Below, one piece after another: positions 14,044 through 48,141 of a DNA stretch of 64,000 bases (positions are counted from its first letter, which is position 1; each line of letters opens with the position of its first letter). Made by a program: the position numbers and the translations under genes. The DNA is from Albugo candida (lineage: Eukaryota), in contig JBDOQK010000023.1 of NCBI GenBank assembly GCA_040437565.1, positions 62,001 to 126,000 on the forward strand, read 5' to 3'. The notes under the pieces were generated by a model. It was given only the letters and a program-made list of their open reading frames with translations, was not told the origin of the DNA and searched no databases.

Positions 14044-16463
14044 ATGCATTCGACTTTGGACGCAACGAAATCGTTCTCTTTGGATGTGAAACAGCCTTTC
14101 GATCCGAAAGAAGCAGAACGTATTGCTGACATTGCACGTCGTGCAGAAGAACGTGCTTCAAAACGCATTGAAACAGAAGGAAATGAAGAAAAACAACGCG
14201 ATTCTCGCACGTCACAAGCCAATCGAAAGACGTTACCTCGAAATTTGACTACTGCAAAATCGATCGATTCAGACACACAAAAAATACGCTTCCGATCGAA
14301 AGAAGAGCGCGAACGAGACGCACTCGAACGTCTCAACGCCCAACGTGTGCAGGTACGTGTCATTTTCACTCGATTTCTGCTCATTTTCACAATTTGTAGA
14401 AAGAATCCGACCGGAAGAAATCCCAGGAACTTCGTCGTCATTTTGTCCAATCGTCCCACACGACCAATCCTTCGACGGCGCGTCGCGGCACTTTGAAACG
14501 GGAAGCGTCTACTCGCGATACATTGCCACATGACGCGAATCGGAACCAAATGAAAGCGCTCCAAGCACTCAAAGACCAATATTTGGGCAAAAAAGTGAAT
14601 AAGAAGAAAATCGTCAAAGCCAGTGAGAAATTCGCGAAAATCTTCCAATTCGATTGGGACACTTCCGAAGACACATCTAATGATTTGAATCCGGTGTATG
14701 CGAATCGCTTGGACGTGAATTTGCTGTATGGTCGTGGGTATCGAGCAGGTGTGGATCTCCGTGAACAACGCAAAAAGAACTCTTTTCTGAACGAGTTGAG
14801 CTTGAAGCGACAAAAGGAGCATCATGCAGCAGATGCTGGGAATTTCAAGTTGACATCGGAGCAGGTGGAACAGCGTCAGCGCGAACGTGAACGTGAGCTT
14901 GAACGGATGAAAGCACGTGAGCGTCAATTGATCCAAGCAATGGCATCGAAAGAAGCTGAATTGACTGGAACGCATTGGAGTGAGAAGAGTTTGGAGGAGA
15001 TGAAAGAACGTGACTGGCGAATCTTTCGCGAGGATTTCGATATCACAATTAAAGGCGGACGTGCTTCCCATCCATTGCGTAATTGGAAGGAAGCGTCCAT
15101 TCTTCCAGAAGCTTTATTCCAAGCGATCCAAGAAATGGGATTTGAACGACCTTCTCCGATCCAAATGCAAGCGATTCCAATCGGTTTAGCAAAACGAGAT
15201 ATCATTGGAATTGCAGAGACGGGATCCGGGAAAACTGCTGCATTCTTAATCCCAATTATCGCGTATTTGTATCATCTACCTCCAGCAATGCTCGAGCGAA
15301 CTGGAGAACAAGGTCCTTTGGCATTGATTATGGCTCCAACGCGAGAATTAGCACTTCAGATCGAGCAAGAAGCGATCAAACTCTGTAAACACACACAAGT
15401 TGGCGCGATACACAGTCAGAATCGTATTCGAACCTTATCGGTGGTCGGTGGTCAAAGTATCGAAGATCAAGCGTTCAAGCTTCGTCAAGGCGTCGATATC
15501 ATCATTGGGACTCCAGGTCGACTGATGGATTGTATGGAGAGCCATTACTTGGTATTAAATCAGTGCAATTACGTGGTCTTGGATGAAGCGGATCGGATGA
15601 TTGATATGGGCTTTGAGCCTCAAGTGGTGTCGGTTCTGGAGAATATGGGATCTTTGTTAAAGTCGGAGAACGAGGAAGAGATGGAGCAGCAGTTGGAACG
15701 CGCCAATAACGCCCAAGAGTTTCGATACCGAGTGACGATGATGTTTAGTGCGACAATGCCGACAGAAGTCGAGCGATTGGCAAAGACATTTCTTCGACAT
15801 CCTGCGATCATCAAAATCGGAGACGAAGATTCCGGGAAGAATAAACGCATTGAACAGCGAGTTCTGTTCCTTAACAGCGGGAAGAAGAAAACGAGATTGC
15901 AACATCTTCTCCACGAGACATTGTCGAGTTCTGGTCAAGTGCGTATCTCGAGGAAAGAAAAGGTTGTGGATGGCCAGAAAGTAATGGTGTTTGTGAATAT
16001 CAAGAAGGAATGTGACGTGTTGGGTCGATACTTGGCGCAAGAAGGATTCCGAACGACCATTCTGCATGGAGGTAAGTCGCAAGAGCAGCGTGAAGAGAGT
16101 TTGCGTGGATTTCGTCAAGGTTTTTGTGATGTGTTGGTGGCCACTGATGTTGCTGGAAGAGGACTGGATATTCCTGATGTGACGCATGTTGTAAACTACG
16201 ATTTACCGTCTAAAATTGAGAATTATTGCCATCGAATTGGTCGTACAGGTCGAGCAGGTAAAGAGGGTGTTGCTATATCATTCTTGACCAACGAGGACGA
16301 AGAGATCATGTACGATTTGAAGCAGTATCTGATCTCAACCAATATGCCGGTGCCTCAAGAATTAGCGAGTCATCCAATGGCCAAAGCTGCTCCTGGAGCA
16401 CGTGACGAGAAGGGGAATATCATCGCGAAATCAAAGCGAGATACCGTCATCTACGCAAAGTGA
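14044..16463 (+). CDS. DDX23: DEAD-box RNA helicase Prp28/DDX23 (U5 snRNP 100 kDa), 2 exons (intron 14353-14399)
   Basis: FQFDWDTSEDTS, HWSEKSLEEMKERDWRIFRED, AETGSGKT, PTRELA, DEAD, SAT, HRIGRTGRAG; the intron joins the 14044 ORF in frame to the 14493 ORF. Confidence 0.95.
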
Positions 16464-18123: not shown

Positions 18124-19351
18124 TTACGCTGTCCATCGAGAGTGAAGTGCGCCTTGTAAGAAATGGATAGCTTCCACATACGATTTTTGAGGTCGAACAT
18201 CATAATGTCCGCCTTCCACATGTAAGACTATTGATGGACCGCTGTATTGTGCTGCAAGCTCATGGCTGTGATGACTGGTAACATATCGATCATCCTTTCC
18301 AGTCATAAATAGAGCTGGAATATTGCAATATTGCACAAAATCAATAGGCCGAAGTAATTTCAAATCCACATTTGCCCGAGTTTGAACTGTTCTTCGAACA
18401 ATCGAACATCCCAATTTGAGGAGTGATAATGGGAATGCAAAACCTTCCTGTTGGATCTGCACCATCATCTCTTCGACCAGCGTTGTCATAGCACAATATC
18501 CTCCATCGATGACCAATCCTCTCACATGTTTCTTGGAATCAGAGTCCATAGAGACATCCATCTGTTCCTGGTGTTTCTCGCTTGCTTGAATGGTGCCTGG
18601 CGAGCGCTTGGAAGCTTCAATTAGCGCCGGATACACTCCCATACTGTGAGCATAAATGCAGATAGATTCCACACTGACATCAGTATCGAGATGCTTCAAC
18701 ACGCACTCTAGATCCCTGCTTTCATTCCATCCCATTGTGACGTACGCGCCGTCAGATTGACCGGATCCAGAAAAGTCAAAAGCCATAACTGATATATAAC
18801 ATCCTAACACGATATCACGGATTCGTAACACGTCAGCACGAGATCCGATGTTAGAGTGAAGGTACACCAAACAAGGCGTGCGATTTGGAATGGAGGAATT
18901 AGGNNNNNNNNNNNNNNNNNNNNNNNNNNNNNNNNNNNNNNNNNNNNNNNNNNNNNNNNNNNNNNNNNNNNNNNNNNNNNNNNNNNNNNNNNNNNNNNNN
19001 NNNCGTGCGATTTGGAATGGAGGAATTAGGATTCGTATAGATTTGCCAATGAGAACAAATCAATGACTCTGCGCGATCGTTCGTGACGGTAAATTGTTTG
19101 TGTCGAATCGTCAACATTAATGCGTTTTCAGAGTGTTTGCGATTACAAAGATGCTGAAATTCATCCGCGCCGAGCATTGAGACGTCGTACACACTGCGCA
19201 CAGGACGTATGACAGAGTTTATGATCGTATCGTATCCTGCTGCTAACAGTTTGAGAGCAGTACTGTCTCCCTCTCCGCCGTGTTTCTTCAACTCGAGTTC
19301 TAATTGTCCATCTTGAAAGACTTCAACGTCATTGGAAGCTCCGTTGCCCAT
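18124..19351 (-). CDS. Alpha/beta-fold serine hydrolase with N-myristoylation motif (interrupted by a gap with overlapping ends)
   Basis: MGNGAS start; VYLHSN; FDFSGSGQSDGAYVTMGWNE; AHSMG nucleophile; GKDDRYV (Asp); GGHYD (His); 27 bp repeated either side of gap 18904-19003 so the frame is probably continuous. Confidence 0.85.
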
Positions 19352-19404
19352 TTTTGGGCAGAATTACCGGTTTTTACTGTTTACAGAAGGTATTTCGAGG
19401 AGCT

Positions 19405-20136
19405 ATGAACTTTGCGCGTTGCTTGCGTCCAAACGCGCTCTTTTGCCGTAATTTACGAAATGAAGGAGCTTTTCACAGCAGTAGGACTTCTTGTATAATA
19501 TTTCGAGATGCAGAATACGTCAAGGAAAAGAAACAGGTCTTTGACCTCGAAAATGGAGCAATTGAAAGTCGGTAGGAATTTCATCGTAACGATACCGTCT
19601 ATTACGATGACCTCTTTTATCGCATATGCAGGCGATATTTATTACGATCCGATGGCTTTGGATTTTCAGTGCAACATGCGATATTACGTCAGCAACAATC
19701 AGCTACTTTGCGTTATCAGAATCATGTGGTGGCAGTAATGGTCACACAAGGAGAAGGAGAAATGCGAGTTATATCACCGCATAATAAAAAAAAAGCAGCT
19801 AGTCAAGAACATCCATCGTACAAGTTGTCTTCAGGGTCTTTTTTCGCGCTTAATGCAGCAGAAACTGTAGAAATTGAAGCAATGACGAAAGAGTTGCATC
19901 TTGTCAGGTATCAAATCGCGATCAATTATCCATCTCCTTCATAACACTCTTCTTGTAGCGTGCTAAATCCACCTCTTGTTGGACCTGAACAGCGCAATGA
20001 GAATGGGGTATTTACAATGATTGATGAGGATGGAGTAGAGAGGGAATCATACGATCACAATATCGTCCGAAGGCTTTTCGAACCGCCCGAATCGCTTCGT
20101 AGTGGTACCATAATGAAAGACGATCCGCTGTTTTGA
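19405..20136 (+). CDS. Ectoine synthase (EctC)-like cupin with putative mitochondrial presequence, 3 exons (19405-19571, 19632-19907, 19959-20136), 206 aa
   Basis: Spliced product contains ESRRYLLRSDGFGFSV, YQNHVVAV, GEGEM, SFFALN, LVSVLNPPLVGPE..NENG in the order of EctC signatures (SRRLLL.DDGMGFS, YKNHLEAV, GEGE, YALD, VFNPPL.G.E.HDE.G); both introns GT-AG and frame-preserving. Confidence 0.82.
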
Positions 20137-20220
20137 TACATTAACAGTTTAATAACGTGTTAAGAACAATCACGCTTCTAATAAAAGTACTTTTTATCGA
20201 AGCGGTCTTTCCTTTCCCGA

Positions 20221-23200
20221 ATGAATGTCGAAGGCAACTGCGCAACTTCAACTTTAACTTTCAAAGATCCAGAAAACATTCATTCTGCTATAAAGTCAAT
20301 CTTTGAAATCGACCGAAAGGCAACTTCAACTGATACCAATTATGCAAAAGTCGAATCATTTCCCAATTTGTCTCTCAATAAAGAGCTCCCGCGCGATAAG
20401 CTGGGCGGAAAGCTGACCTTTTATGCGGCATTAGGCGACGAGAGTGATCTCGAGGCGTACGAGAGGTACCTTCAGTCTAAAAGGAGCCAGGCAGCTGATC
20501 AAAGAGATGATTCGGAGACTGTATCTATGGATGCCTTTGCTTCTCTTACTCGACTTAAAAGAGAGGGAAAGAAGGCGACGTTGCAAAGGCTATCAGAATC
20601 GACAAATCAATGTGAAGATGTCAATTCACAGATAAGAGCGTCGTCGGATTTACCGCGTGAGGAGATTCGAAAGCAACGGCTAAAATGGATACAACCCCTA
20701 TCAAGAGATCAGAAAGATGTGGCCAGAATGCAGAAAAATACGATACAGAAATGGAAGCAAGTGAATGAGGAGTGGGAACAATTCAAAACGCGAATGGCAA
20801 AGAAGCTACAGAAACCCACCTCAAAACTTGTAATCAATCGAATGAATACGCATCGGGAAAAGGTGGAATTACATGAGGCGTTGGAAATCGCAACTCCTTT
20901 TATCGAGAAAGTCGGAAGTGATTTATGGTCTGTAAGTCTTCGAAATGATGCGACACGATACGTACCCGTGGGCAATATATTCAGCGGTTTGTGGTGTCCG
21001 ATACGTGAGCGTACAACGCTCGGTCCGAGTGTACGAAGACCGCTGGATCACACATCTTTGACGTCACATTTCTCTGATCAAATCAATTCTGAGAATAATC
21101 ATTCTCCCATGTCGATACTCGACAACAGGATGCAGAAAGCTGTCACCAGGAAGAAAAAGAAATTGAAGAAACAACTGGAGAAATTGCTAAAACACACGGT
21201 GGAACCGAGCAAGAGGTAGGTCGTTCTGTGAGACTGCATACACTATCAATAACCCTTCTCATGTAGCGGGAGAATGGTGGTCGGTACAATGGATCTTTTT
21301 GAATGGGCTCATTCGTCCAAAACGACGATGCAGTCTGAATCTTCTTATGGCCTGAATACCCCACAACTTGATATGGTAGAGGACGAGGTGGATCACAAAA
21401 TATTGGACAGCGACAGCAAAGATTTTCAGCCTAGTCTTCATCTGTATGTTTGTGGAAGTGAATTCAAAAGCAGACACATGCAACTGGAATTCTATACAGA
21501 CTGTAGAACATTAGAAACACAAACGGTGGTGCTAGAAAATGCTGGAAGCGTTGCTTACCACTTTGAATGGTTTCGTGATGATATTGTGGCCGATACTGAC
21601 GTATTGCATCATCTCAAAGACAATGGGGAGCAATCATGTGTTCATGGGGTTGTGCATCGGACGTTCATATCGTGCATGCATGGTCTCCTTCTACCCGATG
21701 AATGCATCGAATTCACATTTTTCTTTAGAGCAAGCACACCTGGGATGTACCTTGAGAATTGGTCGCTGACGTTGGATCCTCCACTCGTTCGCGAAGTACA
21801 TGATAGTACCAATAACAAGAATCCATTAAAAACCAGTACTTCGGATCAAGACTATACAATTCTTGGTGTATCCTGCTGCTGTATCGCTGTTGACAACGAT
21901 GTACCGATCAAGACCAGGCAACGGCTTCGAGATACAATTGACGGAAGGGCTACAATGCGCATGGCACAACAGCTGATATACCAGATTCTCGATTCAATCA
22001 AGTATGGGGAAAGCTCGGGAGCGTTGACAGCCGGAAGCACACCTGCAGATGTACATTTTCAAACAGAGCATAAAAACTCTCCTTACGAGAGTTTGTACTG
22101 CTATGAGGACGTCGCAAATAAAGCTCAATCAATCAATGCGGCAATTCGCCATCTTCATGAGGACATCCAAATCTTAGAAAAGGATAAAAATGTATTGGAA
22201 AATGTCATCGATGAAAATGGACGAAATGTCGAGGGGAAGATCAATTTTACGGATCTAGGAAACAAAATCGCTGCGACAGAGAAATCGCTTCAAAGCATAG
22301 CGTATTTTTCAGTGGATCGAGAAGGAACATTTTCAGATGAGAGCTCCACAGAGGAAGAGGAAAGGTCTTTAGATCATGAAAGTAGCACTGGAAGTGAGAA
22401 TAAAGATAACGACGAAAGTCTTCTCCATCAAAGAAATCTATTACACTTGGAAATAGCTGCTAAAATACGTAGAGACTTTGAATCTCTTGTCCGAGAAGCA
22501 ATGGTGTCTCCAGACGATCGTGAGTATTTCCATCGCCAGTTATCAAATGAGCTTTCAAAGGTACTAAGTGAGGTTCCTGTCGTGGATGAGATCGTCAAAC
22601 TATCTCAATATGTTGGAGAAGAGATGACAAGCTCCACATCATCACATGTATACAATGGAATATTGGCCGCAGTTGAGAAAGCAGTGAGATCCAATAGGAC
22701 ACACCAACTGTCTCGTCACACCCAACTTCAAAGACTCCAAAATGGCTGGCCTTTTGAAGCCTCACACTTTACAAATTTGGTGGAATCAAGCATACCTCAT
22801 GTGGTATTTAATTCGACAGAAGGCGAGAATGCAGAAATTCTTTTCGAAAACGTTCAACTAATTACAGATCTTGACATTGCCAATTGGTTTGGTTTGAAGC
22901 ATCTTCAAACAGATCAAAAAGCGACTTCTCCAGCTTTTTCTTTCCAATGGAAAGTAAATCCGGAACTCGCCAATTCTGAAAAGTATATTCCGAGAGAATT
23001 TCACTCGGCAGCGACTTCAATTTGTGATATCATACAATGGTATCAGCTGAGAAGAGATGAACAGGAGAAGAGACACGTGGCAGGAAGCCCTTTGCGACTA
23101 TTAGTTATGAGTGAACTATCATCACCTCCGATGCTCAACAGACAAGCGCGCCGAGAATTCGATATGGCATGCGCTTCTGGAGGCTACAGTACCGAAGTAT

Positions 23201-25682
23201 ATGTTGATGCTCTGATTGCAACACAGGACGATCACCTCTCCTTGGAAGACTGTGCTTCTATTTTCGAGCGAGCTTTGAAACGATTTTTGCCAAGAAATAT
23301 ACAGTGGACATTCCAGTTCTGCCAAACCATTGAAGAAGTCGAATCGATACCCGAACCAATGGACAGGAAGTCTGTCCAAATCCTTTTGCTGCAAAACTTG
23401 CACAAAGTAACTTCAGAACGTATCAATGTTGACGAGAGCAATTTGGGATCTTTCGAGCCTGTAGGATCGCATACTGGAACGAATGATCTACCTCATGAGA
23501 GAAGCATCCGACAAAGATCTTCTGACACGATCATTTTCGACACGTTTCCAAGCAAATTCGACAGATTCTCAGAAGAAGAAGCTGCTCTCTCACCCAGAGC
23601 TTTTCTGAGCTCCAAACTACATGAAGAATGGAAACTCTGGCTACATTCTCTCACACCTCAATCTGTCGGCTGTATGGAAACACGTAATATCGCCATCATT
23701 GGTGGTAGAAATTTATCTTCCAAAATTCATTTGATTGACACAATGATTGAAAGCTCCAAAGAGATTTACTTTGTCGGAAAAGTAGCAATAGAATTGTATT
23801 GCGCTCTATTTCTTCGACAACGGCATCTGCGCTCTGAAGAATTGATCCATGAAGCGCAACGTCGGGGAAGGAATAAGTCTGCTGAGAAGTTGCGTAGAAG
23901 AATGGAATGTGAAGAAGCACGCGATCTGGATGCAGTCTACATGATCCCCGCGGTCAATCGACTTCAGCAGAAAGCGTACTGTCGCGACACACAACTGTGG
24001 CTTCCTCGAGATTGGATTGTTGGAGAGGAACCATTACCAAGACATCCACAAACTTCATTACGCGACAGAGTTTTGATCGCTTTGGAAGACGATATTGTGA
24101 GCTCAGATGGAGAGGATATGGACGATGAGGATAGCAATGACGACGACGAAGCAAAGGAAATCAAAAAGTCTGACGATCCCGTGAAATCGCCTCCTCGTTC
24201 GTGTGCATGGGAGCCTTTTATGACCTATGAAGGCGAGACTGCTCATGTTGTTATATCATCGCGCGGTTCTAAGAGCACGAAATGGATTTCATTTGNNNNN
24301 NNNNNNNNNNNNNNNNNNNNNNNNNNNNNNNNNNNNNNNNNNNNNNNNNNNNNNNNNNNNNNNNNNNNNNNNNNNNNNNNNNNNNNNNNNNNNNNGCTTT
24401 TCTGAGCTCCAAACTACATGAAGAATGGAAACTCTGGCTACATTCTCTCACACCTCAATCTGTCGGCTGTATGGAAACACGTAATATCGCCATCATTGGT
24501 GGTAGAAATTTATCTTCCAAAATTCATTTGATTGACACAATGATTGAAAGCTCCAAAGAGATTTACTTTGTCGGAAAAGTAGCAATAGAATTGTATTGCG
24601 CTCTATTTCTTCGACAACGGCATCTGCGCTCTGAAGAATTGATCCATGAAGCGCAACGTCGGGGAAGGAATAAGTCTGCTGAGAAGTTGCGTAGAAGAAT
24701 GGAATGTGAAGAAGCACGCGATCTGGATGCAGTCTACATGATCCCCGCGGTCAATCGACTTCAGCAGAAAGCGTACTGTCGCGACACACAACTGTGGCTT
24801 CCTCGAGATTGGATTGTTGGAGAGGAACCATTACCAAGACATCCACAAACTTCATTACGCGACAGAGTTTTGATCGCTTTGGAAGACGATATTGTGAGCT
24901 CAGATGGAGAGGATATGGACGATGAGGATAGCAATGACGACGACGAAGCAAAGGAAATCAAAAAGTCTGACGATCCCGTGAAATCGCCTCCTCGTTCGTG
25001 TGCATGGGAGCCTTTTATGACCTATGAAGGCGAGACTGCTCATGTTGTTATATCATCGCGCGGTTCTAAGAGCACGAAATGGATTTCATTTGAAGACGTG
25101 ACTGAGGGCTTTCTCTGTGATCAATTTCAAGCTATAAATGAATCTCAGGCTGAAATACTCGAGCCGAAGACACAAGACGAGGAAGATGATTCCAACACAG
25201 ACAGAAGCATCGCCCCAAAAAAGAAAGTGTCTCCACCGCGATACGAATGGATCTTTAGAGCTTATGACGTTGGTCCCCAATCAATGGATTATCTCTGCAA
25301 ATATTTACAGGAATTTTGCGATACGAATGACAATTTCAATGTGTTTATAAATGGTGTGTGTGGAGTCGTCGAGTATCGAGAATTCAGTCTGGCAACTCGG
25401 CAGTTTCTCTCAGCTTGTTCCAGTCTCAAGGAGAAATACGAAACAATCAACATGTTTGTTGCCGGGCACACGACCGCCAAGTTGTTACAGTGGTTAGACA
25501 GTAAGACATCGCAATCGGAGATCCATTCTTGCATCACCATCAAGCACATCTCTCAAAATGTCTCGCCGCATTCATCTATCTCAGGCAATACAATCGGAGC
25601 AGCCACGATCATGAAACAGATTCTTTCAGGACGCACCAATCATATGATCACGAGTCTCCGAAATCTCCATGAAGCAAGTTGA
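20221..25682 (+). CDS. MYCBP-associated protein (MYCBPAP)-like flagellar protein fused to a degenerate phosphoglycerate-kinase fold; intron ~21216-21267; internal gap duplication
   Basis: RYVPVGNIFSGLWC, LENAGSVAYHFEW, GLLLPDE..FTFFFRASTPGMYLENW (MYCBPAP-like); IAIIGGRNLSSKIHLID, LWLPRDWIV, YDVGPQS, FINGVCGVVEYREF (PGK-like). Confidence 0.72.
23599..25092. repeat. Exact direct duplication (23599-24295 = 24396-25092) across a 100-N gap; assembly artefact inside the MYCBPAP-like gene
   Basis: Identical ORF fragments at offset 797. Confidence 0.9.
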
Positions 25683-29616: not shown

Positions 29617-29842
29617 GAATCAGCGTGTGATACAATGCAGTTGGTGTACAAAGAATGGAAATGAATGCTCCGACGAAATTGCAGTTTCAGGAGCTTTATA
29701 TATATATCATCTCTGCTTATTGGATGCGCGTCAAAGCAGAAACCGGCACGGAGCAGTTTTAGAAATTGACAGAAAACGCTCATTATGACGTTCGAGCGCT
29801 TCTGTTGTCATTCCAGCGGCCCAATCATTAGAGCGATCACTG

Positions 29843-30457
29843 ATGGCCAACGATGTGCGTCTGTCAAAGAAACTATCGTACGCACTCCGTCATGGAGCAT
29901 TGAGCCTGCGACTCGACATGGCGGCTGACGGGTATGTGGATGCGTCACAATTGTTGGCAAAGAGCATGTTTGCGTCGTACACGATCTCCGATATCGAGCG
30001 CGTGGTGGAAACGAATGAGAAGAAGCGATTTGAAATGAGATGTGATGGAGAACTCAAATTAATTCGAGCGACTCAAGGTCACTCCCTCAAACAAGTTAAT
30101 GATGAGGATCTACTGACACTTATACGAAATGCCGATGAGATGAAAGATTGCATTCACGGCACTTTGGAGCGGAATTGGACACACATTAAAAGGTTGGGAC
30201 TGGCGAGCATGAAGCGGAATCATATTCACTTTACGACGCAAGAAATTGGCGAGAATGTCATTAGTGGTATGAGGAAGAATTGTGAGGTTATGATTCACAT
30301 TGATTTCAGACGCGCGATGAACGATGGGATCAAATTCTATCGGTCGAGCAACAATGTCATTTTGACGCGCGGAATCAACGACTCGGGAACGCTTCCGAGT
30401 GAGTACGTCGCGCATGTTACGAGAATTCGCGATGGCGCAATTATTTATCGCCGGTAA
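29843..30457 (+). CDS. TRPT1: tRNA 2'-phosphotransferase (Tpt1/KptA)
   Basis: LSKKLSYALRHGA, KKRF, IRATQGHS, HGT, RNHIHF, SGMR, SSNNVILT. Confidence 0.95.
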   Translation: MANDVRLSKKLSYALRHGALSLRLDMAADGYVDASQLLAKSMFASYTISDIERVVETNEKKRFEMRCDGELKLIRATQGHSLKQVNDEDLLTLIRNADEMKDCIHGTLERNWTHIKRLGLASMKRNHIHFTTQEIGENVISGMRKNCEVMIHIDFRRAMNDGIKFYRSSNNVILTRGINDSGTLPSEYVAHVTRIRDGAIIYRR

Positions 30458-44905: not shown

Positions 44906-46963
44906 CTACCAAGCAAGATCAGTCTGTCCGTTACTCGAAGTTTCTTTGGAATCGCAATTTCCACCTCCACAGCCGCCTTCTGTCTCTGCGTCATCGGCGT
45001 CCTGCACAGCGACACGGAATAAGCGATTGCCGAATTTCTTGTACAGCGGCATAATTCCACCACCGGCAAGCAGTCTTTCTTCGAAAATCGACATTTGGAA
45101 TCGAAAGGTTTTACCACCAATTTCGATCGTTCGGCCTTTCATATTGACAGTGATACTGCTTCCTTCAGTAGCCAATTGATAGAATTCTTCATCGGACAAT
45201 TGAATGCCAACGAGACTAAAGTTTTGGTAATTTCGTGAGAAAATGTACCCAAAGGATCTCGCGATAATCACTTGGACACCAGCGCCTTTGAGTGCGGTCA
45301 CAGCTTGCTCTCTGGATGATCCACAACCGAATCCGTGTCCAGCGACGATCACAGTCTGCCCATTTTTCACTTTGTCTCGGAAATCGGGATTTGTATACAA
45401 AAACGCCACTTTTCCAAGTTTTTCGATATCATTTTCAGTGAGATATTCACCCGGCAGAATCGCATCGGTATCGATATTGTCGCCAAAGACCTGGACGTGA
45501 CCGGTGATGGAGGCGGTGAATCCAGCTAAATCAGCACATTCATCGTTTTGCGGGGCATTTTCATTTTCCGGAAGCACAAGTTCAGGCTGAGGCTCCGTAA
45601 TGTGAATCTTATGAGCGACTTTTTTCGGCATCAGTGATCGAAATCGTTCTTGATCAATCATTTTCAAATAGGGTGTTGGGTCAGTAACTTGCATTGTGAA
45701 ACTGGACGCAGCGACAGTCACTGCTGAAGCTAAATTGGCAATGGAGCCTTTCCCCATTCGATTACGATAATTTCGATTCTGACTGCTAAGCCATACTTCA
45801 TCAGGCTGGGCGACATCTGCTGCAATTCCAAGACAGAAACTACATCCGGGTGCACCGACAGTGAATCCTGCTTTCTCGTAAAACTGAAGAAGACCTTCCT
45901 TTTTGAGCTTATTGATGATCATTTGGCTTCCTGGAGTCACTCGACGTTGACCTGTGGGAATTGGTTGGAGTCCTTGTGCTAAACACACTTCCAATACGAG
46001 CGCTCCCATAACCAGATCTTCTTCCGCTGTGGTACACGCTCCAATGAAACATCCATCCAATTTCATTCCAACGACTTCATGAACGGGTTTCACGTTATCG
46101 GGTGACGGGTACAATGCGATTTGGGGGACTAAATGATCCAAATGGATTTGGTGGGTAGCCACATACTCAGCGTCAGGATCCGCTCGAAAGTACATTGCTT
46201 CGTCTTTGTGTGACGAACGCGTGGAAATGTATTCAGCAGTGACTTCATCAGCAGGAAATACGCCAGCAATTCCACCAAATTCCGCTGTCATATTACTAAT
46301 CGCAAAACGAGCATCACACGAAAGCGCTTGGATGTTTCCTCCCCATTCCACGCATCTTCCGATAGCCACTGTATTACATTTCAATTCGCCCAATGTGTAC
46401 AGCATGACATCTTTTCCTCCCAAACCGAACGGAGGCGTACCAACAAATTCGATTTTCACGGTCTCTGGTACTTTGATCCAAGTCTCTCCGGTGACCAGAG
46501 GCATCACAACATCCGCTGCTCCCAATCCGATAGCAAATGCTCCAAGTCCTCCACTGCTACAGCTGTGACTATCAGCGCCAACAATGATCTGACACGGTAA
46601 CGCACGCTGACGGAAAAACTCGGTGTGTAAAATGGTCGTGTTGGCGGGTTGGAAATCGACCAAATCGGCTTCTTTGGCAAAGTCTTCACACACTTTGATC
46701 ATCATTTGCTGTTTTGGAAGGTGATTGACACGTGGATCGACAGTGTGGTCAACAGCGAGCCAGAATCGATCAGGACGCCAGATGCGTGGTCGACCCATGT
46801 CTTGATATGTCTTGTCCATGGATTTCCATGTGATCTCACAGGCTAAAGTCCATTGGACCTTCACACAGAGCATATCGTTCGGTTTTACGGATGGTTTGCG
46901 CAACCCAAGGCCCCAGTGGGTGAGGATCTTCTCAGGCAACGTCATAGGTCGGCGATTCTCCAT
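44906..46963 (-). CDS. Aconitase-family [4Fe-4S] dehydratase, fused large+small subunit (3-isopropylmalate dehydratase/homoaconitase-like), intronless
   Basis: MTLPEKIL, DHTVDP, GADSHSC, FIGACTT, PGCSFCLG, SSQNRNYRNRMG, GDNIDTDAILP, FGCGSSREQA. Confidence 0.92.
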   Translation of the reverse strand: MENRRPMTLPEKILTHWGLGLRKPSVKPNDMLCVKVQWTLACEITWKSMDKTYQDMGRPRIWRPDRFWLAVDHTVDPRVNHLPKQQMMIKVCEDFAKEADLVDFQPANTTILHTEFFRQRALPCQIIVGADSHSCSSGGLGAFAIGLGAADVVMPLVTGETWIKVPETVKIEFVGTPPFGLGGKDVMLYTLGELKCNTVAIGRCVEWGGNIQALSCDARFAISNMTAEFGGIAGVFPADEVTAEYISTRSSHKDEAMYFRADPDAEYVATHQIHLDHLVPQIALYPSPDNVKPVHEVVGMKLDGCFIGACTTAEEDLVMGALVLEVCLAQGLQPIPTGQRRVTPGSQMIINKLKKEGLLQFYEKAGFTVGAPGCSFCLGIAADVAQPDEVWLSSQNRNYRNRMGKGSIANLASAVTVAASSFTMQVTDPTPYLKMIDQERFRSLMPKKVAHKIHITEPQPELVLPENENAPQNDECADLAGFTASITGHVQVFGDNIDTDAILPGEYLTENDIEKLGKVAFLYTNPDFRDKVKNGQTVIVAGHGFGCGSSREQAVTALKGAGVQVIIARSFGYIFSRNYQNFSLVGIQLSDEEFYQLATEGSSITVNMKGRTIEIGGKTFRFQMSIFEERLLAGGGIMPLYKKFGNRLFRVAVQDADDAETEGGCGGGNCDSKETSSNGQTDLAW

Positions 46964-47104
46964 GGTTCAGTCTTGGAAAGAGCAAATTTGGTTCTTGAGG
47001 AAGGGAGAGGAATGAATGGCTCCGTAGAGGGAGATGTGGATGTGACAGGAAGGTCGCAGCAAGAAGTATGCTTTTTTACGCAAAAGTGCGATGAACGCGC
47101 TCTA

Positions 47105-48141
47105 TTAATGTCGCAACATTCGATATTCTTCATAAAGATGGTTTATTGCGACATTTGCATAAAGATCCGATCGAGTCGGCTTTCGATTATGGATTGTCTC
47201 AAAATTGATGCGCCAGGTATGGAGCTTTTCTTCGATTTGAACGAGTCTTTCCTTTTGGGTGAAAGTCTCTTCTGGCGCTTCTTTAAGCATTGGCTGACAA
47301 AAAACGCGCATGATTTCCTGCTCAGAGATATGTTTCCCACAAATTGATTTTGTCATCTGTGTGGGATGGGATTGGATCGTTAGTGGTTTGTTGGGCAATG
47401 TAGAGTCGGACAAACCTTAAGGAGGAGTTGTTCTTGGCCTTGCAATCCAATGGGAAGGAGAAGACCTCCGCCTGGTTTGAGTAGTGGGAGGAAATCCTGT
47501 CTGCTGGTTTTCGTCGGTAATGCGTAGCCAATATGAATACAATCAAAAGTGTTGGAAGAAAATGACGTCTGTCCATTGCTATTTAGAAATTGGAGGTCTG
47601 AGTCTGAGACTGAGTCGAAAAAAGTTTGGGCGATATATGACGATTTTTGTACGAGATTAGGAACAATATCGATGCCAACTACATTTCCCGTGGTTCCTAC
47701 GAGCTGTGCCATGCAGACGGAAAGGTATCCTGTCCCGCATCCAAGATCCAACGCCGAAGCTCCCGGCTTCAAATGCGGTTCGAGCGCACATAATATCTGA
47801 GCGTGATGCTGCGGCGTCGACATCGTAGCTATTTTGCCGATGGGAATTGGGCGGTTTTTATATACATCTTGCTTGGAGACGTTTTCAGGTGCGAAATGCG
47901 CTCGATCTACTCTCCGGAGTACAGTTTCAATGTTGGAGCCTTTCAGAATCAGATTGGTCCTAAGAAGACTATCGACGAGGGTTTGCTGACATGTGCCTCC
48001 AACTTCGTGCCCAATAATGGCACTACAGCCTGTTAGACTTTGTACTGATCAAGAAAGCCTTCCATACCTCAAAAGAAGTTCCGGAGAAACGTTGGCTACT
48101 CCGCTGAACAATCGTTTCGCGGCGATCCGTTGCGTAGCCAT
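47105..48141 (-). CDS. Protein-L-isoaspartate O-methyltransferase (PIMT)-like protein with C-terminal Sld2/RECQL4-N-like helical extension, 3 exons
   Basis: VDRAHF..YKNRPIPIG..TMSTPQHHA, ALDLGCGTGYLS, VVGID, FDCIHIG, LKPGGGLLLPIG; upstream exon MATQRIAAKRLFS; last exon LHTWRINFETIHNRKPTRSDL..LYEEYRML. Confidence 0.8.

Follow-up and report, generated by a model that had tools for sequence, protein, structure and literature searches.

The 64,000-nucleotide stretch of DNA analyzed here comes from the white-rust pathogen Albugo candida, an oomycete of the Albuginales (assembly GCA_040437565.1, contig JBDOQK010000023.1, positions 62,001 to 126,000 of the forward strand; hereafter the window, to which all coordinates refer). 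It contains, at 19405-20136 on the + strand, a two-intron gene for a 206-residue protein of the same family as EctC, the ectoine synthase of bacteria. All three residues corresponding to the iron ligands of EctC are replaced in this protein, and they are missing almost without exception from its oomycete relatives. The best reading, to which we assign a probability of about one half, is that the oomycete proteins constitute a conserved, mitochondrial, dimeric module that derives from EctC, is non-catalytic, and forms no ectoine. Neither the annotation of the gene nor the presence of EctC in oomycetes, in print since 2016 (Harding et al. 2016), is new, and in this respect the original prediction, a note made from the letters of the window, overstated the novelty of the gene. 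Three points appear to be new, namely that the catalytic center has been lost throughout the clade, that the clade is linked to EctC-EctA fusions of other eukaryotes, and that it has a conserved C-terminal tail. Literature statements below draw on PMC4987115, PMC5924519, PMC6344544, and PMC5796728.

Family, fold, and catalytic center

The whole protein matches the Pfam family PF06339 (Ectoine_synth) over profile positions 15-125 of 127 with 74.4 bits (E 1.3e-20; cut-off 27 bits), which bears out the EctC-family membership that had been proposed for it. A better match to another cupin family was considered and ruled out, as the next family, Cupin_1, reaches only 13.1 bits (cut-off 22 bits). The closest solved structures by sequence, as identified with phmmer, are those of EctC from P. 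lautus (5ONM, E 9.8e-14) and S. alaskensis (5BXX, E 3.7e-07).

An AlphaFold2 model built from a 19-row alignment has a mean predicted local distance difference test score (pLDDT) of 77.4, with values of about 90 over residues 31-150, about 44-53 over residues 1-30, and 46-74 in the C-terminal tail. Solved EctC structures are its best fold match in Foldseek (E 7.7e-10). In VIA-align, the model superimposes on 5bxx_B with a Z score of 16.1 and a root-mean-square deviation (rmsd) of 1.6 Å over 113 of 113 residues, and on 5onm with a Z score of 15.4, where model residues 31-166 fall on chain residues 1-120. The next fold families are KdgF (Z 13.1) and then the CENP-C cupin (Z 12.9). The predicted fold is therefore that of EctC, in line with the original prediction. 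Since residue 31 of the model is aligned with residue 1 of the solved EctC chains, the Albugo protein is an EctC-type cupin with 30 extra residues at the N-terminus and about 38 at the C-terminus. A search of the ESM Atlas gave generic cupin clusters only, with scores of 0.91-0.92 and 145-161 shared features (the same-family mark being 170).

Membership in the family does not carry over to the narrower NCBIfam model of ectoine synthase, NF009806, which has a curated cut-off of 128 bits. The Albugo protein scores 79.6 bits and three further oomycete-type proteins 72.5, 85.0, and 90.4 bits, so that all four oomycete-type proteins fall under the cut-off, whereas all four canonical proteins lie above it, namely two eukaryotic EctC-EctA fusions (140.1 and 132.2 bits) and two short bacterial-type proteins (194.7 and 190.9 bits).

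In P. lautus EctC, the iron is bound by Glu-57 and Tyr-84 along with His-92; the substrate is contacted by Trp-21, Arg-25, Asn-38, Thr-40, and Tyr-52, as well as by Glu-57, and the product by Ser-23, Asn-38, Tyr-52, and Glu-57, plus Phe-106. Mutants in which a single ligand is replaced by Ala retain 5.4%, 15.1%, and 12.7% of the activity, and the Trp-21 to Ala mutant retains 9.7% (Czech et al. 2019, PMC6344544). We derived residue equivalences from the phmmer alignment to 5ONM and from an independent MAFFT alignment, and the two agree. Glu-57 corresponds to Val89 in Albugo (codon GTG, 19729-19731, +), Tyr-84 to Phe127 (TTC, 19843-19845, +), and His-92 to Val135 (GTA, 19867-19869, +), so that the replacement of all three ligands, which had been read from an alignment made by eye, is reproduced. 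The damage is nevertheless wider than the metal site to which the original prediction had confined it: Trp-21 is replaced by Ile53, Asn-38 by Gln70, Thr-40 by Ala72, and Phe-106 by Leu150, and only Ser-23, Arg-25, and Tyr-52 are kept, as Ser55, Arg57, and Tyr84. In total, seven of the ten catalytic-core residues are changed: none of the three iron ligands is left, and of the seven remaining contacts four are replaced. By these alignments, the ancestral catalytic center is gone from the oomycete EctC-like proteins. We infer that the Albugo protein no longer cyclizes N-γ-acetyl-diaminobutyrate (N-γ-ADABA) to ectoine, and the database name "L-ectoine synthase" is probably wrong for the oomycete proteins.

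It could be objected that the protein is still an ectoine synthase, with a compensated metal site, and that it cyclizes N-γ-ADABA supplied by the host plant in the manner of the solitary EctC of Pseudomonas syringae. Its membership in PF06339 and the retention of Ser55, Arg57, and Tyr84 would fit such an enzyme, for which a plant pathogen with a solitary ectC offers a precedent (Czech 2018 review). We regard this as highly improbable. The change of one ligand to Ala leaves only 5-15% of the activity (PMC6344544), whereas Albugo has lost all three ligands together with Trp-21, Asn-38, Thr-40, and Phe-106. Bacterial orphan EctC proteins, moreover, mostly keep their catalytic residues (Czech 2019, PMC6344544), the NF009806 score lies at 79.6 against a cut-off of 128, and the bona fide EctB candidates given by Harding et al. 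2016 come from three protists only, none of which is an oomycete.

Conservation and ancestry among oomycetes

Single-sequence word-index searches produced 1 and 4 matches only, and the relatives of the Albugo protein came from profile and representative searches. The profile search returned 48 proteins, including orthologues from oomycetes. Named orthologues were found in many species of Phytophthora and in Bremia, Plasmopara, Peronospora, Hyaloperonospora, Peronosclerospora, and Nothophytophthora, and further ones in Pythium, Globisporangium, Lagenidium, Saprolegnia, Achlya, and Thraustotheca.

We compared 25 oomycete-type sequences, 21 of which are named, with 16 canonical EctC sequences. 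[quoted passage not shown] None of the oomycete-type sequences has kept Glu-57 (Tyr in 16, Gln in 4, Cys in 3, and Phe and Val in 1 each) or Tyr-84 (Val in 12, Phe in 10, and Ile in 3), and His-92 is left in a single one, P0010, with Val, Ile, Phe, Ala, Met, or Leu in the others. Trp-21 is likewise kept in 0 of 25, as is Thr-40, which has given way to Glu in 23 sequences, to Asp in one, and to Ala in one, namely that of Albugo. Phe-106 is kept in 1 of 25. Arg-25 and His-55, by contrast, are kept in all 25, which furthermore have Gln at position 38 and Ser at position 104 (P. lautus numbering) without exception. The original prediction described the substitutions for the Albugo protein, but they are no quirk of this species, the loss of ligands being common to the 25 oomycete-type sequences.

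A scan for conservation identified 13 positions at which canonical EctC is conserved to 90% or more and the oomycete clade is not; seven of the ten catalytic-core residues are among them. At three positions the conserved residue has been switched between canonical EctC and the oomycete clade, from His to Gln70, Thr to Glu72, and Cys to Ser148 (Albugo numbering, here and below), and Arg57, Asn86, and His87 are invariant in the clade. The oomycete proteins also have a conserved block of their own in the C-terminal extension (residues 169-206; 20020-20133, +), which lies past the end of the Pfam EctC domain at residue 168. It comprises F188, P191, L194, K195, G197, S198, M200, K201, D203, P204, L205, and F206, and ends in an oomycete-wide terminal motif, M-K-D-D-P-L-F (20113-20133, +). 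Across the 25 sequences, M200, P204, L205, and F206 are conserved to 100%, K201 to 96%, and D203 to 92%. The former metal positions are now variable and mostly hydrophobic, which looks like loss of the site rather than its redesign, and other parts of the protein are under clear constraint.

The same residues lend themselves to another explanation, in which the protein is a neofunctionalized mitochondrial enzyme that acts on some other amino-acid-like substrate by means of a metal-independent or differently liganded site in a remodelled EctC barrel, formed by the clade-fixed Gln70, Glu72, Asn86, His87, Arg57, and Ser148. The three switches, the invariance of Arg57, Asn86, and His87, and the retention of the lid motif N-P-P all speak for such an enzyme, and it has been suggested that bacterial orphan EctC proteins may act on substrates related to N-γ-ADABA (Czech 2019, PMC6344544). 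However, a new catalytic center at the former metal positions would be expected to be conserved, whereas these are variable; Glu72, present in 23 of 25 sequences, is Ala in Albugo itself; and the window offers no candidate for a substrate or for a partner in a pathway. On balance we consider such an enzyme unlikely, although it is the most probable of the alternatives.

The ancestry of the family was analyzed with a maximum-likelihood tree (38 rows, 195 columns), which contains 24 ligand-less oomycete-type rows and seven short bacterial-type rows and omits fragments, near-duplicates, the partial P0017, P0011 with its apparent unspliced insert, and some of the Phytophthora and Peronospora matches. 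The 24 ligand-less rows form one clade (support 99/96). Within it, the Saprolegniales are separate from a group in which Albugo and Pythium stand with the Peronosporales, the pattern that vertical descent would produce. The tree shows a gene family that is present in every oomycete order sampled and, by its branching, vertically inherited.

The ligand-less clade, together with the long eukaryotic EctC-EctA fusions of Bicosoecida sp. CB-2014, Biecheleria, Polarella, and Alexandrium, is set against six short bacterial-type rows (99/100). A BLASTP alignment of the Albugo protein with the bicosoecid fusion P0020 covers residues 31-198 (E 4e-31, 34% identity), continuing 30 residues beyond the end of the bacterial domain and across a shared loop insertion. 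The partner domains of the fusions score 142.6 and 123.5 bits against TIGR02406 (cut-off 120.6) and are thus genuine EctA. Of the bacterial derivation put forward in the original prediction, the homology to EctC stands, but a direct origin from bacteria does not follow, as the nearest relatives found are the eukaryotic EctC-EctA fusions. The simplest reading of the tree would be descent from a eukaryotic EctC or EctC-EctA gene that already carried a presequence, rather than recent transfer from a bacterium.

Two further sets of sequences bear on the history of the family. P0010, a protein of 178 residues from a 974-nt contig, is basal in the ligand-less clade and has kept His-92 and Phe-106, while Glu-57 is replaced by Gln and Tyr-84 by Phe; it is possible that it represents an intermediate in the loss of the metal site. 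A 722-residue protein from a Joint Genome Institute (JGI) metagenome, P0082 / P0022, combines PhyH (EctD-like), GNAT (EctA-like), and EctC domains in this order, which differs from that of the EctC-EctA fusions of dinoflagellates and the bicosoecid and suggests more than one fusion event.

Gene structure, presequence, and genomic surroundings

Splicing of 19405-19571, 19632-19907, and 19959-20136 (all +) gives a frame of 621 nt without internal stop. Its 206-residue product is an exact match to P0027, that is, A. candida CCI48113.1 / KAL0586549.1 / UniProt A0A024GP35, for which a public annotation exists with the automatic UniRef name "L-ectoine synthase". Exon 1 (19405-19571) holds codons 1-55 and the first two nucleotides of codon 56; 19405 is the first in-frame ATG downstream of the upstream stop, and the presequence-like N-terminal extension (residues 1-30; 19405-19494, +) precedes the position of the bacterial Met1. 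Intron 1 (19572-19631, +; 60 nt) and intron 2 (19908-19958, +; 51 nt) both have GT..AG ends and are in phase 2. Between them lies exon 2 (19632-19907, +), which encodes the cupin core (residues 56-148) and on its own matches PF06339 with an E of 1.2e-10. Exon 3 (19959-20136, +) encodes the lid region and the C-terminal extension and ends with a TGA stop at 20134-20136. Because each intron contains an in-frame stop on read-through, a list of stop-to-stop open reading frames (ORFs) shows the gene as three consecutive fragments in the same frame of the + strand (19255-19575, 19576-19944, and 19945-20136).

The junctions were checked by aligning contigs from sequencing runs to 19200-20400, with 4 of 14 listed runs covered (X1, X2, X4, and X9). 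In X1, X2, and X4, one contig each leaves out exactly 60 nt at the first junction and 51 nt at the second, and the omitted stretches are bounded by GT..AG. The 691-nt contig of X4 spans 19385-20186, and its first ATG is that at 19405. Both introns are retained in a 14,809-nt contig of the DNA-like run X9. The two-intron model, as the original prediction had drawn it, is the same as the public annotation, and contigs that lack the introns were obtained from 3 of 3 aligned runs guessed to be RNA, all from one study. An artefact of gene prediction was also considered and is ruled out, the junctions being supported by contigs and the orthologues being collinear with the spliced Albugo protein over both of them. 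Among ORF calls of the Globisporangium type, P0006 and P0007 lose homology at the intron 1 residue, and P0006, P0007, and P0072 lose it after the intron 2 residue; both intron positions are therefore shared beyond Albugo. The second junction is read through unbroken in Phytophthora-type and several other sequences (P0070, P0009).

Relative to the window, the only coding difference in X9 is 19825 T>C, which is synonymous by codon reading, and the 51-nt intron 2 has one substitution (19915) and a 2-nt insertion. The Albugo-like contig of X9 has two further differences downstream, at 20253 and 20255. A conserved exon alongside divergent intron read-through, as in X9, is also seen in P0005 and P0078.

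The loss of the catalytic residues, the relaxed constraint at 13 formerly conserved positions, and the lack of partner genes in the window could be taken to mean that the gene is a decaying, functionless remnant of a lost ectoine pathway. Of all the explanations considered, we find this the least probable. Orthologues that are intact and of full length are known from Albuginales, Peronosporales, and Pythiales as well as from Lagenidium and Saprolegniales; 38 columns are invariant among 10 sequences, and the C-terminal motif is newly fixed; spliced, transcript-like contigs are found; and between the window and P0005 exon 2 differs at 1 of 79 residues, compared with 5 of 12 in the intron read-through.

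Matrix presequences that the mitochondrial processing peptidase removes are typically basic and poor in acidic residues, with an Arg at position -2 or -3 relative to the cut. The first 30 residues of the Albugo protein have five Arg/Lys and one acidic residue (Glu), and by eye they contain no hydrophobic stretch like that of a signal peptide. In 19 named full-length oomycete orthologues, 14-31 residues with 2-6 Arg/Lys precede the column of the bacterial Met1; 18 of the 19 extensions have neither Asp nor Glu, and 17 end in the motif R-x-[FLY]-[HSAT], usually as R-x-L/F-H-A-S. Short bacterial-type EctC has no such extension, and the earlier description of an Arg-rich, almost acid-free N-terminus is accurate. 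These features, taken with the R-2/R-3 processing motifs as generally known, suggest that the oomycete EctC-like protein would be imported into mitochondria by way of a basic, acid-free presequence of 14-31 residues. The precedent invoked for such targeting, that of Halocafeteria, also holds, as predicted mitochondrial targeting signals have been reported on all enzymes of its ectoine pathway (Harding et al. 2016).

In a homodimer prediction, residues 31-206 score 0.76, compared with 0.01 for the best control. The mark for a dimer is reached by 20 of 30 proteins solved as one-chain pairs, compared with 1 of 23 whose structures are single chains, and among eukaryotic proteins by 17 of 29 and 0 of 30, respectively. 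Contact agreement between the runs is at least 80%, the partner pLDDT is at least 68, and strand 31-36 of each copy is predicted to pair with strand 124-130 of the other. The model thus points to retention of the symmetric homodimer of EctC.

Partner genes for ectoine synthesis were sought in the window in two ways. Searches by tblastn with three EctA halves and the 722-residue PhyH-GNAT-EctC fusion returned the EctC locus only (E 2.5e-18; next 0.43), and Pfam scans of 28 ORF pieces from the window, each with 180 residues or more, gave no GNAT, class-III aminotransferase, or PhyH domain. The original prediction is right that no ectA or ectB accompanies the gene in the window, and no ectD-like sequence was detected there by these searches either.

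By their Pfam matches, the genes around the locus in the window are ordinary eukaryotic ones. The start codon of the EctC-like gene is about 53 nt from the start of a divergent α/β-hydrolase gene (18124-19363, -), which has matches to Pfam Hydrolase_4 and FSH1 and is interrupted by a 100-N scaffold gap (18904-19003). Its product begins with M-G-N-G-A-S, which we take to resemble an N-myristoylation start. Contigs of X1 and X2 extend from the EctC-like gene over the short intergenic stretch into the hydrolase region. Downstream, consecutive + strand ORFs at 20185-25682 comprise MYCBPAP-family pieces (20185-21216 and 21253-24295) and phosphoglycerate-kinase-like pieces (about 23.7-25.7 kb). Together they may belong to a single long gene, broken up by an N gap at 24296-24395 and by either an intron or a change of frame. 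Elsewhere, the window contains genes for a DDX23-like DEAD-box helicase (14400-16460, +), a Tpt1/KptA RNA 2'-phosphotransferase (29789-30454, +), aconitase (44909-46966, -), and protein-L-isoaspartate O-methyltransferase (47383-48048, -), as well as two protein kinases, Dcc1, an adaptor-complex medium subunit, and a Got1/Sft2 protein. Thirteen 100-N runs (1,300 N) mark scaffold gaps of the draft assembly, and the GC content is 43.8%.

Proposed role and comparison with known systems

On the preferred reading, the oomycete EctC-like protein would serve as a non-catalytic module, either a small-molecule-binding or a protein-docking subunit. Such a module would make use of the retained Arg57, Asn86, and His87 and of the newly fixed Gln70, Glu72 (Ala in Albugo), and Ser148, as well as of the invariant, probably flexible C-terminal tail that it has gained. 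One may go further and picture a lineage-specific mitochondrial pseudo-enzyme of oomycetes as a whole, derived from ectoine synthase. As a metal-free cupin dimer it would sense or sequester a metabolite that resembles an amino acid, and by its invariant M-K-D-D-P-L-F tail it would be docked onto a mitochondrial partner as a regulatory or accessory subunit of a kind unknown in other eukaryotes. In this picture the ligand-less form would have evolved stepwise from a functional EctC-EctA enzyme, by way of a P0010-like stage that retained His-92 and Phe-106; all this is speculative, and we would give it low odds.

Several observations weigh against a conserved, mitochondrial, non-catalytic module. 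The conserved Gln70, Glu72, Asn86, His87, and Arg57 could equally form a metal-free or differently liganded active site, which favors the enzyme described above. The Albugo extension has one Glu and lacks the conserved Arg of the motif at its end (G-A-F-H-S-S, with F-H-S kept). The homodimer prediction may merely echo the EctC dimers that have been solved and would then not be independent. The three runs with spliced contigs all stem from a single study, and their RNA nature is only guessed. Finally, the ancestry suggested by the tree is not settled, as P0025, a short sequence on a long branch, adjoins the ligand-less clade (86/88), and the sampling of bacteria is thin (seven rows) and does not allow a donor to be identified.

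No fewer than 30 database entries for oomycetes carry the name "ectoine synthase" or "L-ectoine synthase" in one source or more. More than two dozen entries, among them P0004, P0008, P0036, and P0051-P0069, received such a name automatically in spite of their missing catalytic residues, which is probably a case of propagated over-annotation. Such a name implies a compatible-solute pathway in major pathogens of crops and fish, against which the residue evidence argues, and we suggest "EctC-like cupin" instead. While the finding does not open a long-standing question, it would provide a case of pseudo-enzyme evolution in which an enzyme acquired by a eukaryote gained a presequence and introns and lost its catalytic center. 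The ligand-less form appears to have been conserved ever since the oomycete orders sampled here last shared an ancestor. In our searches it was found only in oomycete-type sequences, and it may offer a handle on mitochondrial biology specific to oomycetes.

A literature search yielded no report of metal-site loss in oomycete EctC-like proteins, although supplementary trees S7-S10 of Harding et al. 2016 may show the residues. In that paper, A. candida and six other oomycetes are listed with "either EctA or EctC", the listing including A. candida, A. laibachii, Saprolegnia, Phytophthora, and Plasmopara. Solitary EctC-type proteins are also known from bacteria, with a role that is described as unresolved (Czech 2018 review; Czech 2019, PMC6344544). 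For the most part they keep the residues that bind iron, substrate, and product, and position 104 is frequently occupied by Ser (Czech 2019, PMC6344544).

As regards known systems, the Albugo protein may be compared with bacterial EctC, as represented by the P. lautus (5ONM/5ONN/5ONO) and S. alaskensis (5BXX/5BY5) structures, with which it shares the Pfam family and the cupin fold (Z 15.4-16.1, rmsd 1.6-1.9 Å, 27-33% identity), the motifs S-R-R, G-F-S, N-H-V, and N-P-P, and, by prediction, the symmetric homodimer. It differs in having a 30-residue N-terminal extension, a C-terminal extension of about 38 residues, a loop insertion of about 11 residues, and introns, and in lacking the three iron ligands as well as Trp-21, Asn-38, Thr-40, and Phe-106, and it stays below the NF009806 cut-off. 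With the solitary EctC of Pseudomonas syringae pv. syringae it shares the absence of adjoining ectA and ectB and the setting in a plant pathogen, and the oomycete protein resembles the bacterial orphans in having Ser at the position of Cys-104. Unlike the orphans, which keep most of their residues, Albugo has changed seven of ten and groups with the long eukaryotic forms in the tree. A metal-free cupin barrel is known from the dimerization domain of CENP-C (7X85, 6XWV), the third fold family in the superpositions (rmsd 3.1 Å over 113 residues); at 17% identity there is no sequence relationship, and CENP-C serves solely as an analogy for how a cupin without ligands can function. The eukaryotic EctC-EctA fusions, lastly, share with the oomycete protein a basic N-terminal extension, the loop insertion, and a C-terminal extension as far as residue 198. 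They differ from the oomycete clade in keeping every catalytic residue, in passing NF009806, and in carrying an EctA domain that passes TIGR02406, whereas the oomycete protein lacks an EctA part and terminates in a conserved tail of its own.

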